Notes under the pieces: generated by a model
Databases searched by the model: none
The model's input: only the letters and a program-made list of their open reading frames with translations
What the model was told of the DNA's origin: nothing
In this document: one piece after another, positions 4,818 through 24,180 of the stretch
Layout of the letters: the number at the start of each line of letters is the position of its first letter
Position numbering within the stretch: position 1 is the first letter of the stretch
Made by a program: the position numbers and the translations under genes
Source: a virus
Taxonomy: Duplodnaviria > Caudoviricetes
IMG/VR virus record: IMGVR_UViG_3300014862_000005
Coordinates: 1 to 24,180 of that record
Reading direction: 5' to 3' (one strand)
Length of the DNA: 24,180 bases

Positions 4818-4976
4818 ATGGACACCAAGGCCTGCGAGATCTGCAAGACCACCGAGACCGAGACCAACCGCGTGGCGCCCGTCAACCTGGGTGCCCGGCC
4901 GGCCCTCGTCGACGTGTGTGACATCTGCTGCGAACTCCTCGCCGCGGACCTTGCCGTTCTCTCCGCTCTGAAGTGA
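4818..4976 (+). CDS. 52-aa zinc-finger-like protein (not in ORF track)
   Basis: RBS AGGAG; MDTKACEICK...VDVCDICCELL has two CxxC motifs. Confidence 0.7.
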   Translation: MDTKACEICKTTETETNRVAPVNLGARPALVDVCDICCELLAADLAVLSALK

Positions 4977-5052
4977 CCGAGTCCGGCAGGTGCTGTGAGG
5001 CCCTGCCGGGCACTCACCCCCACGTCAGGTGGGGCGGCGACAGGAGGTCGCC

Positions 5053-5223
5053 ATGACCGAAACGCCCAGCAAGCAGTCGCTTCTCGCCAAGTACGACCGG
5101 CTCTGCTCCGACATCAACTACGCCGAGCAGGCCGGGCTGAGTAACGAGTTCCTCCGCCGGCACTACGCGGCCGCGGAGAGGCTGAACGCGAAGGCGGTCG
5201 CGGCAGGCTACGGCCCGCTGTGA
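5053..5223 (+). CDS. 56-aa helical hypothetical protein
   Basis: Strong RBS AGGAGG; flanked by hairpins. Confidence 0.75.
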   Translation: MTETPSKQSLLAKYDRLCSDINYAEQAGLSNEFLRRHYAAAERLNAKAVAAGYGPL

Positions 5224-5257
5224 CGGTCACGCCCGCCGGGAGCGTCATCCCGGCACC

Positions 5258-5363
5258 TGCCCCGAGCACTGGTAGTGCAACGAGCGACCTGGACTGGCTG
5301 GACGCGGACGCGGCGTCGGGTTCGGGAAGCGCAAGGAGGGTCGGTTCGAAACCGACCGGGGCA
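5258..5363 (+). ncRNA. tRNA-like element 1 with expanded anticodon-arm domain
   Basis: Acceptor TGCCCCG/CGGGGCA, D arm GCAC-TGGTA-GTGC, T arm GTCGG-TTCGAAA-CCGAC; about 60 nt replace the anticodon and variable arms. Confidence 0.65.
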
Positions 5364-5382
5364 CGAAAGGAGGTGGTCCACA

Positions 5383-5526
5383 GTGGAGGCCATCATCAAC
5401 AAGAGGTGCTGTGTCCAGTGCGACAACGGTGGAGCCGGGTCCCTTGAGGATCCGCCCATCGTTCCGTGGTGGATGCAGATGGTGGAGGAGCGCACCGACG
5501 AGGAGCGCGAGCTCACCGAATCCTGA
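5383..5526 (+). CDS. 47-aa hypothetical protein, acidic C-terminus
   Basis: RBS AAAGGAGG 9 nt before GTG; CCVQC motif. Confidence 0.65.
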   Translation: MEAIINKRCCVQCDNGGAGSLEDPPIVPWWMQMVEERTDEERELTES

Positions 5527-5579
5527 CACCTCCGGTCCGGCCGGTCTCGTACCGGTCGGAGCCGTGGCCGTCAGGCCAA
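5522..5579 (+). repeat. Structured intergenic module, copy 1
   Basis: CCTGACACCTCCGGT-[hairpin]-GCCGTGGCCGTCAGGCCAA; CCTGAC pairs with GTCAGG. Confidence 0.85.
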
Positions 5580-5620
5580 ACCGAGCCAAGCGGATCTTGG
5601 CCAGTCGGAGGGAGACCGAC

Positions 5621-5839
5621 ATGAGGTACACCACGAAGGACGACGCGATCGAGCAGGCGTTCCCCGAGGACGTCCGCGAGCCGGGCTTCGACGTCGATGC
5701 GATCTTCGCCGCGACGTTCGAGTACCGGGTCGACAAGGACGCCGACGGGAACGAGCTGCTCAACACGGCCGGCTTCGAGCAGGTCGTGAGCGAAGAGCGG
5801 TTCTGGGAACTCACCCAGGAGCACGCCCGCGAGTCCTGA
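5621..5839 (+). CDS. 72-aa acidic phage protein
   Basis: RBS GGAGGGAG; D/E-rich MRYTTKDDAIEQA...FWEL. Confidence 0.8.
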   Translation: MRYTTKDDAIEQAFPEDVREPGFDVDAIFAATFEYRVDKDADGNELLNTAGFEQVVSEERFWELTQEHARES

Positions 5840-5844
5840 CCGGA

Positions 5845-5873
5845 CAGTTCCCCGCGCACGCGGGGTTGGACCT
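5845..5873 (+). CRISPR. Solitary type I-E CRISPR repeat (candidate Racr)
   Basis: CAGTTCCCCGCGCACGCGGGGTTGGACCT aligns without gaps to the I-E repeat (E. coli GAGTTCCCCGCGCCAGCGGGGATAAACCG), with the hairpin and 8-nt tail. No second copy or cas gene seen in the window. Confidence 0.75.
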
Positions 5874-5933
5874 GACACCTCCGGTGGGGCTCGGCCCGAA
5901 AGGTCCGAGCCACCGCCGTGGCCGTCAGGCCAA
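5871..5933 (+). repeat. Structured intergenic module, copy 2
   Basis: Same 15-nt 5' end and 19-nt 3' end as 5522-5579, but a different internal GAAA-capped hairpin. Confidence 0.85.
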
Positions 5934-6116
5934 GGCCCAGCCGTCGAGCCTCAATCGACGCCCAGGGATGCCGACGGGTAACACGGCAGCCGCGACGCCA
6001 GCGTAGGGGCGAGGGAAGACGACGCCACAGAAGGTCTCTACCGGTTCCGGGGAATCAGGAGAACGGAGCAGCCGCGGGAATCGTGGCGCCGCCCGCCAGA
6101 GCGCATCTGGCACCTC

Positions 6117-6186
6117 GGGTGGTCGCAATAAGGAGTGCGCCAGGCACCGGGCCTGGTCGGCGGTTCGAATCCGCATCCATCCACCA
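6117..6186 (+). ncRNA. tRNA-like element 2 (non-canonical, ends in ACCA)
   Basis: GGGTGG/CCATCC acceptor plus ACCA, D arm CGCA-ATAAGGAG-TGCG, CCAGGC-ACCGG-GCCTGG arm lacking U33, T arm GCGG-TTCGAAT-CCGC. Confidence 0.7.
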
Positions 6187-6335
6187 ACACTCTTCACAGC
6201 GCAGCGACGTCGAGCCCAGCTCCGTCGGCGACGCCCCGAGGCCCCCGGTCCGGCTCGACAGCCGAGCGGGAGCCGAGGCCCTCGGGCCGAGCATCCCACC
6301 CCCCAACCAGGGGGGTCTATGGGGAGGGAGACCCC

Positions 6336-6920
6336 ATGAACATGCTCGAAGCTCCGTTCCGTGTGCTCGGCCAGATCGGCCCGCGACTCATCATGATCGC
6401 GGCCATGGTCACGAGCTACGACACACAGCACCGTCTCTTCCTTTCGTGGGGCGTGGATGGCCTAACGGCCGCCATCGCCCCGGCCGTGGTCGACCTTCTG
6501 GCGATCACGTGCGCGGAGATCCTGCATGACCAGTGGGTGATCCGTGGCAAGGGCTCGGCCGGGTTCGTCCTGGCCGTTGCCGGGCTTGGCTCCGCGTTCG
6601 CCAACTGGCTGGCCGGGGTCACGGTCGGGAGCAAGGTTGTGCATGCGTCGATGGTTCTGGCGTACGTGCTTGCCGAGTTGGTTGTCGGCCGCGTGCGACG
6701 GGTCATGGAACAGCAGACAGCGGCCGTGCAGGCGGTCACACCGGAGGTAACCGCGGATGAGGCGGCGAGCCCGGACCTGCCGGAGGCGCCGGTTTCGCCA
6801 GCGGTGCCCGGCAAATCTCGCGGGGACTACGGTCCACGCGACCCGGAGCGCGGCTACGCTCCGAGTACTGTGCGGAAGAAGCGGGCTGTTGCGAAAGTGG
6901 CGGCCACGCCGACGGAGTAG
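6336..6920 (+). CDS. DUF2637/SpdA-like multi-TM membrane protein
   Basis: SY..Q..L...G....A...P..VD pattern and S..AN with four hydrophobic segments; RBS GGAGGGAG. Confidence 0.7.
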   Translation: MNMLEAPFRVLGQIGPRLIMIAAMVTSYDTQHRLFLSWGVDGLTAAIAPAVVDLLAITCAEILHDQWVIRGKGSAGFVLAVAGLGSAFANWLAGVTVGSKVVHASMVLAYVLAELVVGRVRRVMEQQTAAVQAVTPEVTADEAASPDLPEAPVSPAVPGKSRGDYGPRDPERGYAPSTVRKKRAVAKVAATPTE

Positions 6921-6966
6921 TCCCTGCCCGGACCGAGAGGTACGGGTAGCCGCTCGGTAACCTAAG

Positions 6967-7008
6967 AGCCCCCGATCCTGTCTACCCGTCAGGATCGGGG
7001 GCTTTTTT
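6967..7008 (+). terminator. Intrinsic terminator
   Basis: 14-bp stem AGCCCCCGATCCTG/CAGGATCGGGGGCT followed by a T tract. Confidence 0.85.
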
Positions 7009-7237: not shown

Positions 7238-8785
7238 TCAGAACGGCCACGTCTGGTTCTGGCCGGCTTCGAGCAGCGGGATGAGTTTGAACGCAGCGTC
7301 GGTCAGTCCGGCGAACGTGTGCCGGTTCACTGCGCCTGGCCCGTGGCCGAGCCGGTAGCCAGCGAGGTTCCACGTGTAGACCGGGATGGTCGCGGGCACG
7401 AAACCGCCCGGGTTGCCGTCGTGCGCCTGCTCGTCGGTGACGATGACGACCCGATCGTGGCGGGCGTAGTGGGCCTGGACAGCGGCCGCCGTGTACGTGC
7501 CGCCGAGGTTGGTAAACCGCTCCTGCACGATGCGCAGCAGCGAGTCGCCGGCCTTGACCGGGACCAGCGCCGACTTGGTGCCGAACTGGACGAGGTCCAC
7601 GTGGCCGACGTTGCGCAGCGCCAGCGCGGCACCGAAGACGGCCGCCGTGTCGGCGCGGTTCAAGCCCGACCGGGCCGAGACGCCATCGAACATGGAGCCC
7701 GACCGGTCGACGAGGACGAGCGTCCGGCCGGGGAGTTCCGGCACGTTGGCCAGCGACAGGTTCAGCGCCACTTCGAGGCTGTGGCCCCACCGCAGCGACG
7801 GGACCGCCTTGTACGCAGCGAGGAACCGGAACGGAAACTGCCGCGACTTGGCCACGCGCGCCGGGTCGGTGAGCAGTGCCATCACCTCGTGGGCGACACC
7901 ATCTCGGATGCCGGCCTCGTCGAAGTTGCGCAGGTTCCGCAGCAGCGCCATGTAGCCCATCGACGGGATGAGCGCCTCCCACAGTGCCGCCTTGTCCACC
8001 TCGGTCCCGGCCAGGGACAGGGCGTCCTCCCACGTCATCCCGGCCGCCCGCAACGCATCAGCGTCGAGCAGCGGGCCGGAGTGATGCCGGGCCGCCTCGC
8101 GCAGTTGGGCGTTCGCGGCGAGCATCGTCAGCGACTCGGCGCACGTCTGGTCGCGGTTGTGCCGGCGGGCCAGCGCGCATGCGAACAGATCCCCCTGCCA
8201 CGGGGCAGACGGCGACGGGTGGGTGAGGTCGAGGACGTCGGCGAACCGGAAGCCCTTGCTGTTGGTGTCGTACTTGAGCAGGGCGTACTCGTTGTAGAGC
8301 CGCTGCACCGCGTCGGCGATACCGCGCTTGACCGGCTTCGGGATCGCCCGGCCGTACCGAGAGGTCCAGTACGCCAGCGCCTCGCCGGGCTCGTCGGCAC
8401 GCTGAAGCACCGAGGCGACCATCTGGCGGGCGCCAGGGACCTTCGCCGCGAGCAGCGCCCGGGCCGCCTCTAGCGCACCGACGAGGGATGCGGAGCGCAT
8501 GTTGCCGTCGGAGCGGAGCCAGCGCAGGAACCGGCCGGTCCAGTCCGGGTCCTCGGTCGCGACCTGCGCGACGAGACGCTCGTACCGTTCGTCGCGGGCC
8601 TCGGCCTTCTCGTAGAAGGTGTTCTCGCCGACCATGTTCGACACGGCGAGCAGGAAGAGTTCGCCCTTGGCGTCGCGCGCGTAGCCGGGTGCGCCCTCAT
8701 GGGTGAGGGCGGACGGCGTGGCCACGGTGAGGATCGGGCTCGTACCGGACGCGGCGCGGGTGTCCCTGACGTTGAACTTCGACAC
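7238..8785 (-). CDS. rsr: TROVE-domain RNA-binding protein, Ro60/Rsr ortholog with C-terminal vWA domain
   Basis: ELFLLAV..M..E.TFYE, GNMRS, MGYMALLRNLRN, SRQFPFRF; vWA MIDAS LVDRSGSM and IVTDEQ. GTG start (MSKFN) with GGAAGG RBS. Confidence 0.95.
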   Translation of the reverse strand: MSKFNVRDTRAASGTSPILTVATPSALTHEGAPGYARDAKGELFLLAVSNMVGENTFYEKAEARDERYERLVAQVATEDPDWTGRFLRWLRSDGNMRSASLVGALEAARALLAAKVPGARQMVASVLQRADEPGEALAYWTSRYGRAIPKPVKRGIADAVQRLYNEYALLKYDTNSKGFRFADVLDLTHPSPSAPWQGDLFACALARRHNRDQTCAESLTMLAANAQLREAARHHSGPLLDADALRAAGMTWEDALSLAGTEVDKAALWEALIPSMGYMALLRNLRNFDEAGIRDGVAHEVMALLTDPARVAKSRQFPFRFLAAYKAVPSLRWGHSLEVALNLSLANVPELPGRTLVLVDRSGSMFDGVSARSGLNRADTAAVFGAALALRNVGHVDLVQFGTKSALVPVKAGDSLLRIVQERFTNLGGTYTAAAVQAHYARHDRVVIVTDEQAHDGNPGGFVPATIPVYTWNLAGYRLGHGPGAVNRHTFAGLTDAAFKLIPLLEAGQNQTWPF

Positions 8786-8819
8786 GGAAACGGCCCTTCC
8801 CATCGAGAGAGGGCCGCAG

Positions 8820-8984
8820 TTCAGATGTGGGTGCCCGAGATCAAAGTCGACGTCGGAGGTTTCGTACCTTTGCGCTACCAGGCTGCGCTACATCCCCGAC
8901 GAGGCGGGGACGGTGGGATTTGAACCCACGACCCAAGGTTCCCTGTGAAGTATCCGGCACCTTCGCACCGGGCACCCATCTGAA
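8820..8984 (-). ncRNA. yrlA: YrlA-type Y RNA
   Basis: Terminal stem GGGTGCCCGGTGCGA...TTGATCTCGGGCACCC (Ro-binding helix) encloses a permuted tRNA domain: T arm GTGGG-TTCAAAT-CCCAC, closed acceptor-like stem, D arm TAGCGCAGCCTGGTAGCGC. Directly upstream of Ro60. Confidence 0.9.
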
Positions 8985-20113: not shown

Positions 20114-21133
20114 TTAGGCGTCGAGGAGACGCAGCAGCGACTTGGCGCTGTTCGTGAACGTGCGGTCGGCGATCGCCTCACGGGCGAGGGTGGCGAGGCG
20201 CTGCCGCTCGGCTGGGCGGTTGAGCCAGTACCGCAGCAGATCCGACGCCTCGTCCGGCGACGTGAACGAGGGGAGCATCGGGAACACCGCGTCCGACTCT
20301 TGGCGTGGATCCCGCAGGAAGAAGCACCCCGTGGCAGCGAGCTCGACCTCGCGCGGACCGATCGCGTACCCGGCAGCCAAACCGGGTCGTTCGGACTCGC
20401 GCCGGTAAAGGTTCATCCCGACCGCAGCCGACCGGTAGACGTCCGCCGTCTTGGTGTTGTCGAGGCAGTCGCCGAGGTCGTGAGCGACGTGTTTGCGCAG
20501 CGGATGGTCGTCGTCGAGGAGTTGCCAGTTCCCCGCCAGCAACACATCCAGCCCGTCAAGGTCGAGCTGCTCGAGGAACCCGACGCGTGATGGGTAGCCG
20601 GTGCCGACGAAAGCGAAGTCGGATCTCAGTTCGGCAACGGCCGGTCCGGGGTGGTGGATGCTCGGCCGGTAGGCGTGCGGCAGGTACCGGGTGCCCTTGG
20701 GATACCGGTCGATGTTGATGGGGTCGTTGACCAGGTTCAGGTCCGCGTACGGGGCGAGCTTCAGTTGCCGCTCGTCCTCGTACGGGCTCTCCGTATGAAG
20801 GACCACCACGCGGGTCCGGGTCCGGCGGGCCCTGTCAAGGAGCTTCGGCGGGACGAAGAAGCCGGAGACGATCAGCAGGACATCGGGCCACGTCTGGTAC
20901 AGCGTCGCGTACAGGCCTTCGATGGCCATGTCGTACGACTGCGCCGGCGTGACGGCCCGCTTGAACTTCCCCGGCTCATCGGTCTCCATCAGGACCGAAC
21001 CGAAGAAGGTGAGCCTCTCGTCCAGCGAATAGGTGTGGACGTCCTGGCCGAGTTCGCGCAAAGCCTCAACCCAACCAGCGAACAGATCCTGAACCGAGAA
21101 GGAGGGCCCGGGCTGGCAGACGAGCCACCTCAC
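20114..21133 (-). CDS. Glycosyltransferase, GT-B (CgeB/Glyco_trans_1_2-like)
   Basis: TESPYED, DFAFVGTGYPSR, GMNLYR, GPREVELAATGCF motifs; GTGA-coupled start at 21133. Confidence 0.85.
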   Translation of the reverse strand: MRWLVCQPGPSFSVQDLFAGWVEALRELGQDVHTYSLDERLTFFGSVLMETDEPGKFKRAVTPAQSYDMAIEGLYATLYQTWPDVLLIVSGFFVPPKLLDRARRTRTRVVVLHTESPYEDERQLKLAPYADLNLVNDPINIDRYPKGTRYLPHAYRPSIHHPGPAVAELRSDFAFVGTGYPSRVGFLEQLDLDGLDVLLAGNWQLLDDDHPLRKHVAHDLGDCLDNTKTADVYRSAAVGMNLYRRESERPGLAAGYAIGPREVELAATGCFFLRDPRQESDAVFPMLPSFTSPDEASDLLRYWLNRPAERQRLATLAREAIADRTFTNSAKSLLRLLDA

Positions 21134-21555
21134 GTGTACACCTTCACCGGCAGTTCGGCGCCGAAGTAGACGACACCGTTCCACTCGACGTCTCCCCAGC
21201 CGCGTGCGGTAAGGATCTCCAGGTCGGCCACCGTGTTGCCGAGCTTCGAATCGGCATACAGCACCGTCCGCAGCGACAGGGCACCCGAGCGGGAGAAGTA
21301 GTCCATCAACGACCGCTGGCCGGCCTCGGTGGCCTGTGCCCCGACGATGACCTTGATAGTCAGTTCGATCTCGTCCTTGCCTTCGAACGTCACATCGAAG
21401 TCCAGAAACTCCCCAACCGAGGGGACGACGATGATGCACGGCGGGTCGATCGAGTCCTTGCCGAACCCGTACGTCCGGCCGGCGATCGTCTGGTTCACGT
21501 AGCCCGTCTGGATTCGGATCACCATCGCATCAATGACGTCCTTCAGGTCGGCCAT
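21130..21555 (-). CDS. Putative tail terminator / tail completion protein
   Basis: Size, PPCIIV motif and position after the head-tail connector. Confidence 0.6.
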   Translation of the reverse strand: MADLKDVIDAMVIRIQTGYVNQTIAGRTYGFGKDSIDPPCIIVVPSVGEFLDFDVTFEGKDEIELTIKVIVGAQATEAGQRSLMDYFSRSGALSLRTVLYADSKLGNTVADLEILTARGWGDVEWNGVVYFGAELPVKVYT

Positions 21556-21556
21556 C

Positions 21557-22411
21557 TCAGCCCACTAGTACGGGGTTGAGGATGTACGGCTGGAGCCGGC
21601 GCATCGCCATCGGGTTGTCCCGAACCCGGACCGGGCCGAACTGGTCCATGTTCGCCACCCCGAACGGGGCACCCTTCAGCTTCGACGTCTCCGACGCGAG
21701 CATCAGGCACGCCTGCTTAACCGGCGACGGGATCGAGGACCAACCCCACTTCGCCGTCACCTGCAACGTCCGCCTACGAGAGGAGGAACAGGGGAACGAC
21801 CAGCCGACGGCGTTGATGCGCGAGTACGGCCATCCCGGCTCACCCGACACCATGCCGTTGGCCGGATCCAGTTCGTAGTCGGTGTAGGCGGTCCAGGTGG
21901 ATCCGTCGGTGCCGGTCTCCACAATCAGCCCGGTCGTGGTCCAGAAGTCATCGACCAGAGACCAGCAGTGCGTCGTCGGCTGGAACTGTCTCGCGGTTGC
22001 GGTAGTGGACATGGTGAACGTCCGCCCGCACGTCTCGGTGATCCCTCGCGAGGCCGAGTCGAGCGCATCCATGAGGGCTGCGTCGTCGGTGGTGTCGGTG
22101 ATCTGCATGTACGCCTTCAGTTCCGGCAGCGTCGCATACAGGGCTGGGCTCGGACTGGCAGCGAGGACCGAACCGCGGTCCACGTCGACCACCGTGCCGG
22201 AGATGGTCCACACCCACGACCAGGCGCCGGCAGATGAGAGCGTGAACGACGCGGTGTAGATCCCGACCGTCGCCGTCGACACCACCGGAGTCGACGTGGT
22301 CCCATCTGGGGCCGTCACGGTCAGCACCACCGTGGCGGCGACAAGGACCCCGGACGCGTTGTAGACGTTGTGCTGCAGGTTCAGCTGATCGCCGACGTCG
22401 CGTGTGGTCAC
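21557..22411 (-). CDS. Head-tail connector (gp6/gp15-like) with N-terminal Ig-like domain
   Basis: YATLPELKAYM...DD..L..AL..ASR.I...CGR.F and VTAKWGW..IP..VKQACL; N-terminal LTVTAPDGT...G.Y beta domain; GTGA-coupled start. Confidence 0.8.
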   Translation of the reverse strand: MTTRDVGDQLNLQHNVYNASGVLVAATVVLTVTAPDGTTSTPVVSTATVGIYTASFTLSSAGAWSWVWTISGTVVDVDRGSVLAASPSPALYATLPELKAYMQITDTTDDAALMDALDSASRGITETCGRTFTMSTTATARQFQPTTHCWSLVDDFWTTTGLIVETGTDGSTWTAYTDYELDPANGMVSGEPGWPYSRINAVGWSFPCSSSRRRTLQVTAKWGWSSIPSPVKQACLMLASETSKLKGAPFGVANMDQFGPVRVRDNPMAMRRLQPYILNPVLVG

Positions 22412-23214
22412 CGCGCACCTCCCGATGACGAAACGGCCCGGAACCCACCGGACGAAGAGCTGGACCGGAAGGCGGACGAGGAAGACATGAGCGGCGGGCC
22501 GGCCCCGATGGCGATGACGGTGTCCGACGAAATGAGCACCTCGACCGCGGCCGCGGCGTAGTTGAACACCGCTCCACCACCGGACCGCAGATCCGCCCAC
22601 GGCACCGTGGTGGAGTCCGGGTTGGTCTTCACCTGCGTTTGAAGCCCACCCCAGTCGGTGTTGTGCACCTCGTGAAGCTCGTCCCACCCCGACCCCGGAG
22701 TGACGCCTGCGCTGGGCGACTTGCAGACCCCCGCCGCCGCCACGATCTCCGACGTCCCGGCGGGAGTGCTCGACAGTGTGAGTGAGATCGGCGTAGGAGG
22801 ACCGGTGAAGCCACCCGACTGCTGACCGGTCGCCGTCTCACCGATCGGATCGGTGAGGTCGTGGCCGGTGTAGGCGAGCACCGAGATGGAGTAGATGCCG
22901 ATCGACCTCGCGCCGCAGTCCAGCACGATCGTCATCTCCTCGTTGAGGAACACGGGCGCCGTGTAGATGGCCGTCGCTGCGGTGAACCCGGCACTCACCC
23001 CGGCGGAGGCGCGCAGCGAGTAGGCCAGGTCCCCGCCGGCGATAGTCAGGTCTGGCAGGAGTGAGTCGGAGCCGCCGTTCTCGATCGCGCTCACGCAGGC
23101 GACGAGGAGTGAATCAGCGGGTGGGGTGAAGGCTGTGCTGGTGAACGTGCTGGTTCCGTAGTTGCCCGACGCTCCCGAGATCTGGCCGAGGAGGGACGTG
23201 CGGGCGAGGACCAC
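22408..23214 (-). CDS. Hypothetical Ser/Thr/Gly-rich, probably virion-associated protein
   Basis: Beta-rich composition similar to the terminal modules of 13238..16732; TAGTG-coupled start. Confidence 0.65.
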   Translation of the reverse strand: MVLARTSLLGQISGASGNYGTSTFTSTAFTPPADSLLVACVSAIENGGSDSLLPDLTIAGGDLAYSLRASAGVSAGFTAATAIYTAPVFLNEEMTIVLDCGARSIGIYSISVLAYTGHDLTDPIGETATGQQSGGFTGPPTPISLTLSSTPAGTSEIVAAAGVCKSPSAGVTPGSGWDELHEVHNTDWGGLQTQVKTNPDSTTVPWADLRSGGGAVFNYAAAAVEVLISSDTVIAIGAGPPLMSSSSAFRSSSSSGGFRAVSSSGGAR

Positions 23215-23822
23215 TACAGCCCCCACTTCTCCCGGACACGCTTCATCGCGTCGTGGAAGCCGGTCAAATGGTCCGGGTCGCGCGAGTTGTTGGTGTTGTG
23301 CGCCACCAACTCATGCCCGCCGTCGAGGCAGTAGTTCGGCAGGCCGCGGGCGAGCATCTGCGAGCAGGCGTCGTGGTCGTAGCCGTGCCAGCCGCCGATC
23401 GTCTCGTCCCAGTCCACGTTGTGGACGGTGGCGAGGAGCAGCCCGTCGAGGAACGTGCAGGGCCCGCCGCCACCGAAACCCAGCACGCCGAGACGGCCGT
23501 CGACGACGGACCCGAGGCATACCCCGTTCCACCACGGGTAGGTGCGGCTCCGGCTCCCGATCAGGCCCACCATGCCAACCGCTTCGGTGGCGTAATCGAG
23601 TAGTCCCGTCCGTAGCCGGGGAAGGTCAAGAACTTGCACGTCGTGGTGGGCGTAGCAGCGGACCTGGTAGTCGGCCTTGGCCTGACCTTCGTTGTACGCC
23701 ACCGCGATCGACGGGGCGTTCTCCACGACGATCACCTGATCGGAGCCGACGTCAACCATGGACGCGGCGAAGTTCTTCAGGAGAATCGTCGGATCGTGGG
23801 AGGCGACGATCCACGAGATCAT
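23214..23822 (-). CDS. Glycosyltransferase-like protein, GT-A (Glyco_tranf_2_5-like)
   Basis: SIAVAYNEG, HHDV, GMVGLIG, LDGLLLAT, WHGYDHDAC motifs; ATGA-coupled start. Confidence 0.8.
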   Translation of the reverse strand: MISWIVASHDPTILLKNFAASMVDVGSDQVIVVENAPSIAVAYNEGQAKADYQVRCYAHHDVQVLDLPRLRTGLLDYATEAVGMVGLIGSRSRTYPWWNGVCLGSVVDGRLGVLGFGGGGPCTFLDGLLLATVHNVDWDETIGGWHGYDHDACSQMLARGLPNYCLDGGHELVAHNTNNSRDPDHLTGFHDAMKRVREKWGL

Positions 23823-24180
23823 GAGCGCGAGGTGTAGTAGTAGTCCACCGTGACCTCGGGCACGAACACCCACGTCGCCCCGGCCAGCACCCAGGCCTGG
23901 ACGAGTTGCCAGTCGACGCAGTACTCCGACGGCACCGGCCACAGCCCGAACTTCAGGTGGGTATCCGCGCGCTGCATGAGGATCGACGAGTCGATCCCAC
24001 CGTGCTGTGGTGGTTCGGTCCCGATCTCGTCGCCGATGCCGTGCCGGTACATGCGCGAGTAGGCGAAGTCCCGGTCCGGGTTCGCCTCGAGCGCCGCCAC
24101 GAGACGCCCGATGTGCTGCGGGCGGAAAGCATTGTCGTCGTCGAGGTAGGCGATGAAGTCCCCGGTGGCCACCTCAAGGC
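23819..24180 (-). CDS. Glycosyltransferase family 2 (5' truncated by window)
   Basis: ATGDFIAYLDDDN DxD motif; frame open to the window edge. Confidence 0.85.
   Translation of the reverse strand, partial: LEVATGDFIAYLDDDNAFRPQHIGRLVAALEANPDRDFAYSRMYRHGIGDEIGTEPPQHGGIDSSILMQRADTHLKFGLWPVPSEYCVDWQLVQAWVLAGATWVFVPEVTVDYYYTSRS

Follow-up and report, generated by a model that had tools for sequence, protein, structure and literature searches.

Results

Genomic context of the repeat

The window analysed here is an entire virus record of 24,180 bp, estimated to be 30% complete, whose 33 scanned ORFs include genes for a tyrosine integrase, a TROVE protein, an amidase endolysin and head-tail proteins. 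A type I-E CRISPR repeat is located among five small, co-oriented ORFs (Table 1). The repeat is intergenic, in sense orientation, and starts 5 nt past the stop codon of a gene for a 72-amino-acid acidic protein. Each of the five ORFs has a purine-rich, ribosome-binding-like site, and together they likely form a single early operon, from which the repeat would be transcribed in sense. A consensus scan found no promoter, and at the repeat there is no room for one of its own.

Table 1. Features of the early gene region discussed in the text, with positions in the window
Feature	Position	Strand	Remarks
Five small co-oriented ORFs	4818–6920	+	4818–4976, 5053–5223, 5383–5526, 5621–5839, 6336–6920 (DUF2637)
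Hairpin module, copy A	5521–5577	+	Starts on the stop codon of ORF 5383–5526; without repeat
72-aa acidic ORF	5621–5839	+	pI 4.2; 19 D/E
36-bp gain (absent from the empty site of the orthologue)	5835–5870	+	Comprises the first CCTGAC with the stop codon, 4 nt and repeat positions 1–26
Solitary type I-E CRISPR repeat	5845–5873	+	Hairpin 5850–5865; predicted Cas6e cut after 5865; 8-nt handle 5866–5873
Conserved phage hairpin module, copy B	5870–5931	+	Predicted to pair with the handle of the repeat
Hairpin module, copy C	6234–6288	+	Compensatory changes in the foot stem
Strong hairpin with T-run	6964–7008	+	Likely operon terminator; z −7.4; not called by the consensus scan

Further elements accompany these features. 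Right behind hairpin modules A and C lie hairpins with a ribosome-binding site (5580–5620 and 6290–6335), an arrangement common to relatives. Two stretches of the plus strand (6117–6187 and 5340–5357) look tRNA-like by eye, one combining an acceptor-like stem, a T-loop motif and a CCA end, the other being a lone T-arm-like hairpin; ARAGORN called no tRNA at either. On the minus strand, a YrlA-like Y RNA (8844–8960; 38 bits, below the gathering score of 69) is found directly upstream of the TROVE/Ro60 gene (7238–8803), and three glycosyltransferase-like ORFs occur among the head-tail genes (20114–24172). In another record (L174), a TROVE gene is likewise near the same acidic ORF.

Which host does this phage infect? 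Behind the integrase gene, a 45-nt att-like core (909–953), interpreted as such because it looks by eye like the 3′ half of a tRNA-Val gene, recurs with 0–1 mismatch in 26 of 301 sampled Actinomycetes genomes. The phage is therefore most likely temperate and actinobacterial. Exact copies of the core are present in several actinomycete genomes of unrelated size. The best named match of the integrase is Micromonospora phage pMLP1 (36%), and no integrase match at 1e-30 was found in two sets of 61 genomes. When 786 array spacers (both strands counted) were compared with the window and ten related pieces, none of the 20 matches listed was longer than 25 nt.

The product of the acidic ORF has 20 homologues including itself, all of them unnamed or hypothetical, and its 90% cluster holds two further, near-identical proteins (P0021 and P0022) that are encoded on other contigs, of 3.5 and 2.3 kb. 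The structural model is confident (pLDDT 91.6). Searches against PDB sequences and folds returned no match (best Z 3.1), no solved anti-CRISPR protein (Acr) and no named family, and the structural look-alikes are uncharacterised viral proteins only. In the absence of a match to a solved structure, the protein is not a recognised Acr.

Identity and solitude of the repeat

The original prediction had described a 29-nt match to the I-E repeat with an intact hairpin, and this description holds. A degenerate I-E pattern matched the window once, at the repeat (2 mismatches), and matched none of 100 shuffled sequences. With a matrix of host repeats, partly made from arrays that had been found using this very repeat sequence, the repeat scores 37.0 of 42.7 bits, the runner-up site in the window 7.1 bits. 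In silico folding within the native flanks gives the repeat hairpin pairing probabilities of 0.95–1.0. Rfam holds no family at the repeat or at the hairpin module, and the repeat did not turn up in the searched text of the supplementary files of PMC10651486.

Comparison with I-E arrays of candidate hosts, suggested along with the original prediction, revealed near-matching actinobacterial repeats: The closest full-length identity is 26/29, to array repeats of Nocardiopsis and Streptomyces. Within a species-level genome collection, a 24-nt core of the repeat is exact at seven loci in six genomes, all Nocardiopsis or Streptomyces; all seven loci are arrays with a 61-bp period, and cas8e is present in each of the five genomes with the exact core that were searched for it. 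The closest variant sharing U22 differs from the window repeat at positions 2, 4 and 29, all outside the hairpin. Genuine arrays also contain U22, and several of these vary at position 29. In the genomes whose repeats are most similar, no exact copy of the att-like core is present; at least three positions differ. In one att-matching genus, I-E arrays with related repeats were found in 8 of 151 genomes, with an identity of only 24/28, and cas8e in four of the five array-bearing genomes checked.

The repeat is solitary, as judged from a best ungapped identity of only 14/29 to the ~150 nt on either side, and families for Cas6e, Cas7 and Cas1 were not found in the ~30%-complete record. The earlier statement that array and cas genes are lacking from the window is thereby confirmed for these families. 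To count as a solitary repeat unit, SRUFinder asks for at least 90% identity and at least 90% coverage relative to a known repeat and a bit score of at least 41.1 (PMC10651486). Compared with 81 distinct repeats collected here, a subset of the full repeat library, the window repeat aligns with 25/25 identity over 25 of 29 nt (50.1 bits) or with 25/26 over 26 of 29 nt (44.1 bits), which passes the bit-score threshold at a coverage (86–89.7%) just below 90%. As the same procedure further asks, there is no second full or partial repeat within 100 bp, and the repeat is intergenic, on a mobile element and not tied to cas genes.

According to PMC11656645, viral CRISPR mini-arrays need two repeats and borrow a host repeat without cas genes. 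The latter is also seen here, whereas the window has a single repeat and, consequently, no enclosed spacer; it thus lies outside the definition of such arrays (at least two repeats enclosing a spacer). Four other viral records contain three-repeat I-E mini-arrays with closely related repeats (L201:1441–1591; L202–L204:1378–1530, minus strand).

The hairpin module

The hairpin that follows the repeat is one of three copies in this region and belongs to a family shared with related phages. The module comprises a 6-bp foot stem (CCTGAC), a 5 × 5 internal loop, CGG/CCG, a bulge and a variable top stem. In an alignment of 16 copies, 96.3% of cells pair and 8 of the 17 pairs are changed on both sides; none of 500 shuffles scored as high for paired cells and covariation, a test that overstates the support because the structure was drawn from these same related sequences. 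By a simple placement rule, the stop codon of the upstream gene lies inside CCTGAC in 9 of the 15 module copies outside the window, and the flanking genes differ between phages. We found the module neither in 151 class-wide genomes nor at six pattern matches in one genus. It may serve as an RNA processing or 3′-end signal.

The early region of phage T7 carries RNase III processing stems. Similar to these, the module has an extended stem interrupted by an internal loop and directly follows small early genes, but its sequence and host group are different and its cleavage is only a proposal. The module family could also mark a seam of gene shuffling. A reading as integron attC, raised by the stem-loop-bulge shape, is disfavoured by G-U variants on the sense strand (5 cells; A-C cells uncounted).

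Filled and empty alleles of the site

How did the repeat get here? One orthologue of the upstream gene (L003, identical to L173; 87% DNA identity) ends in a stop codon that runs directly into the module and has exactly 36 bp fewer than the window, with boundaries of the gain that can slide by 6 bp. Behind the other two of the three orthologues found, there is neither module nor repeat. None of eight loci retrieved in a viral scan for the downstream module is preceded by the repeat, nor do any of 15 module copies in nine related phage records have a repeat within the preceding 120 nt. Given the allele without the 36 bp and the 15 sister modules without a repeat, a recent, lineage-specific gain is the simplest reading of these sequences. 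The discrete insertion originally proposed from a comparison within the window is now supported by a true orthologue.

That proposal had further placed the repeat between two CCTGAC hexamers. Their positions (5835–5840 and 5871–5876) are correct, as is the layout of the sister site, where the stop codon TGA (5524–5526) within CCTGAC (5522–5527) runs into the module. The repeat does not, however, lie between the hexamers, as its last three bases (positions 27–29) are the CCT of the second. Since this second CCTGAC both overlaps the repeat and constitutes the foot of the conserved phage hairpin, the pair does not represent a clean target-site duplication. Duplication of the hairpin foot by two recombination junctions would better account for the doubled hexamer.

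Scans beyond the related phages gave no second example. A junction pattern matched 20 times in metagenomes, namely in the record of the window itself, in 17 ordinary arrays and at two unrelated single repeats. In viral sequences, an exact 25-mer of the repeat had no match, the repeat core with position 22 left free had four (all in three-repeat mini-arrays), and a pattern of hairpin plus module end had eight, none with the module. A comparable repeat was absent from ten related records in whole-record pattern scans and from ten 20-kb pieces scored with the matrix (best 11.6 bits); two look-alikes, in G548 (8.4 bits) and G547 (10.2 bits), are within background. Among the sequences scanned, the filled site is a single occurrence, carried by the window's own record, and shows no sign of conservation or selection.

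Predicted cleavage products

As described in PMC5965380, Cas6e cuts I-E repeats into a 21-nt hairpin portion and an 8-nt handle and remains on the hairpin; the cut position in Table 1 follows from this rule. The original prediction envisaged a handle fused to a strongly structured pseudo-spacer. The position of the handle was right, but the supposed pseudo-spacer is an older phage hairpin: The 32 nt behind the repeat form the 5′ arm of the module that related phages carry without a repeat. Seven of the eight handle positions are predicted to pair with the far side of this module (probability 0.73–1.0). Upon folding, the unpaired value of the handle together with the 32 nt that follow it is 0.26, lower than in any of the 60 array controls (minimum 0.29), whereas the upstream 55 nt (0.41 unpaired) resemble the average of 60 array repeats (0.40). 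The four bases past the predicted cut are mostly paired, with an unpaired value of 0.08; 12 of the 60 array repeats are equally low. Folding thus predicts an upstream product with the openness of an ordinary spacer and a buried handle on the downstream side. A guide role of the downstream product appears unlikely in such a model, because the older hairpin would bury the handle.

Discussion

What could be the role of a lone CRISPR repeat behind a small phage gene? Our preferred explanation, to which we assign a probability of roughly 50%, is that of an RNA anti-CRISPR (Racr) on the tail of an mRNA, laid out like acrIC5-RacrIC1. Here, the repeat, likely captured from a host array, would be transcribed in sense from the promoter of the early operon, as part of the tail of the 72-aa gene's mRNA. 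Host Cas6e would bind and cut the repeat hairpin and would stay, probably together with Cas7, on the upstream product, which has no 5′ handle. This decoy RNA would lower the host's I-E immunity, and little guide RNA would form, since the downstream handle is predicted to be buried.

Several precedents frame this explanation. RacrIC1 shares an RNA with acrIC5, which it follows at a distance of 11 nt, and is inhibitory on its own, and two I-E Racrs, RacrIE1 and RacrIE2, are known (PMC10651486). In the case of RacrIF1, the upstream cleavage product inhibits, binding Cas6f and Cas7f on 70–76 nt, and RNA consisting of the handle only does not (PMC10651486). The weight that the original prediction had put on the downstream product finds no support, the more so as the handle is predicted to be paired here. 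Like RacrIC1, RacrIE1, RacrIE2 and RacrIF1, the window has a single repeat of host type whose Cas6 hairpin is intact and which follows a small gene at a distance of a few bases, with neither array nor cas genes. Unlike these, it has no promoter of its own, follows a protein that is not a recognised Acr, has a handle that an older phage hairpin is predicted to bury, and is known from sequence alone; in turn, an orthologous empty site reveals the 36-bp gain. As a solitary repeat close to actinobacterial array repeats and a discrete gain, the repeat is a fair candidate Racr, just as proposed at the outset.

Some observations count against the Racr explanation. The upstream product would be translated mRNA of ~300 nt or more, as opposed to the 70–76 nt of RacrIF1. 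Moreover, the filled site was seen once, no promoter was found, the four bases past the predicted cut are mostly paired, the upstream protein matches no solved Acr, and the genomes with the closest repeats lack an exact att core, while the att-matching genus has less similar repeats. In favour of the explanation, the same gene region of a related record (G007) holds an I-E-like unit of repeat, spacer and degenerate repeat, which hints that phages of this group encounter I-E systems. The unit (L234:995–1086, plus strand) consists of a repeat with a 5-nt loop, a 32-nt spacer and a degenerate repeat, runs antisense to early genes behind what may by eye be an extended −10 element, and is a candidate Cracr or mini-array; a search of 151 genomes from one genus returned no match to its spacer.

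A more elaborate version of the Racr explanation, which we regard as unlikely, would have the Racr born as a plug-in. The repeat would have recombined into the hairpin seam, with the duplicated hexamer keeping both stop codon and hairpin. The handle would thereby be locked away and only the decoy half of the cut RNA be usable, and the acidic gene would encode an unknown anti-CRISPR, making up a protein and RNA pair directed against actinobacterial I-E systems.

Alternatively, the repeat could be a neutral scar of a rare recombination with a host array, which persists as stop codon and hairpin were left intact, and at which Cas6e may cut without a selected effect. We consider this, the main rival, possible, if clearly short of probable. 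In line with such an origin, viral and metagenome scans retrieved the repeat only once, and the duplicated hexamer restores the ORF stop as well as the whole module. Recombination between a host spacer and its protospacer would be a route by which a repeat could enter a phage, and AAN is a PAM of I-E systems. An AAC triplet precedes the repeat start by 34 nt, close to the spacer length of 32 nt, and points weakly to a crossover of this kind; with that PAM assumed, its chance occurrence is ~12% over five positions (AA, 0.0255 per position). Spacer–protospacer recombination followed by a return via 2–3 bp of microhomology at the repeat end would explain the doubled hexamer; a literature search for this mechanism found no primary paper. 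Against a scar, none of the two to three differences from the nearest repeats falls in the hairpin, though selection cannot be demonstrated from three changes, and the orientation is sense, for which the chance is one in two. Moreover, a non-targeting crRNA alone reduced I-F interference (PMC10651486), so that even an accidental repeat, if expressed, could act.

Might the repeat instead be a processing site that makes the amount or stability of the acidic protein or the downstream RNAs depend on the host's expression of I-E Cas proteins? The repeat does lie exactly at the seam marked by the conserved hairpin, and a cut would separate gene from hairpin. However, Cas6e stays bound after cutting (PMC5965380), and any such use would consequently titrate Cas6e as well. 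We deem this role improbable.

We consider it very unlikely that handle and following 32 nt act as a guide RNA, loading Cascade either to repress a host cas promoter in the manner of a Cracr or to attack sister phages with the empty allele (homing). The handle has canonical length, and several related phages have modules in which the 21 nt directly after the repeat recur unchanged, but no second repeat ends the guide, and the segment is less open than any of the array controls above. In 188 kb covering ten host CRISPR-cas regions, the best seed was 12 nt long, which is the commonest value among shuffles, and none came with an AA-type PAM; the suggested match of the downstream ~32 nt to a host cas promoter hence did not emerge above chance in these regions. 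As for homing, CCT occupies the PAM position in empty and filled alleles alike, which would leave Cascade unable to distinguish the two under the known I-E rule. Cracrs need a PAM-proximal match of at least nine bases to a cas regulatory target (bioRxiv 10.1101/2024.10.29.618823). The repeat shares with these and other crlRNAs of that survey, which covers Actinomycetota targets, the nature of a phage-borne I-E repeat-like RNA. It differs in that we found no spacer-like segment with a cas-promoter seed match and no second pseudo-repeat, and in that a conserved phage hairpin lies downstream. An assembly chimera of phage and host array, finally, is hardly credible: The junction is known from one record only, but its overlaps of 2–6 bp would be far below usual assembler words, and the repeat is identical to none of the 81 distinct repeats collected.

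What, then, does the candidate mRNA-tail Racr add? Racrs are already established, and one more candidate is modest news; a literature search found no paper in which a Racr had been assayed against the I-E system of a Streptomyces. The interest lies mainly in the matched empty allele and the predicted burial of the handle. The allele pair resolves the entry of a lone repeat into a phage to the single base, and, being filled and empty versions of one gene end that are 36 bp apart, it offers a natural control for the effect of an mRNA-tail repeat on I-E immunity.
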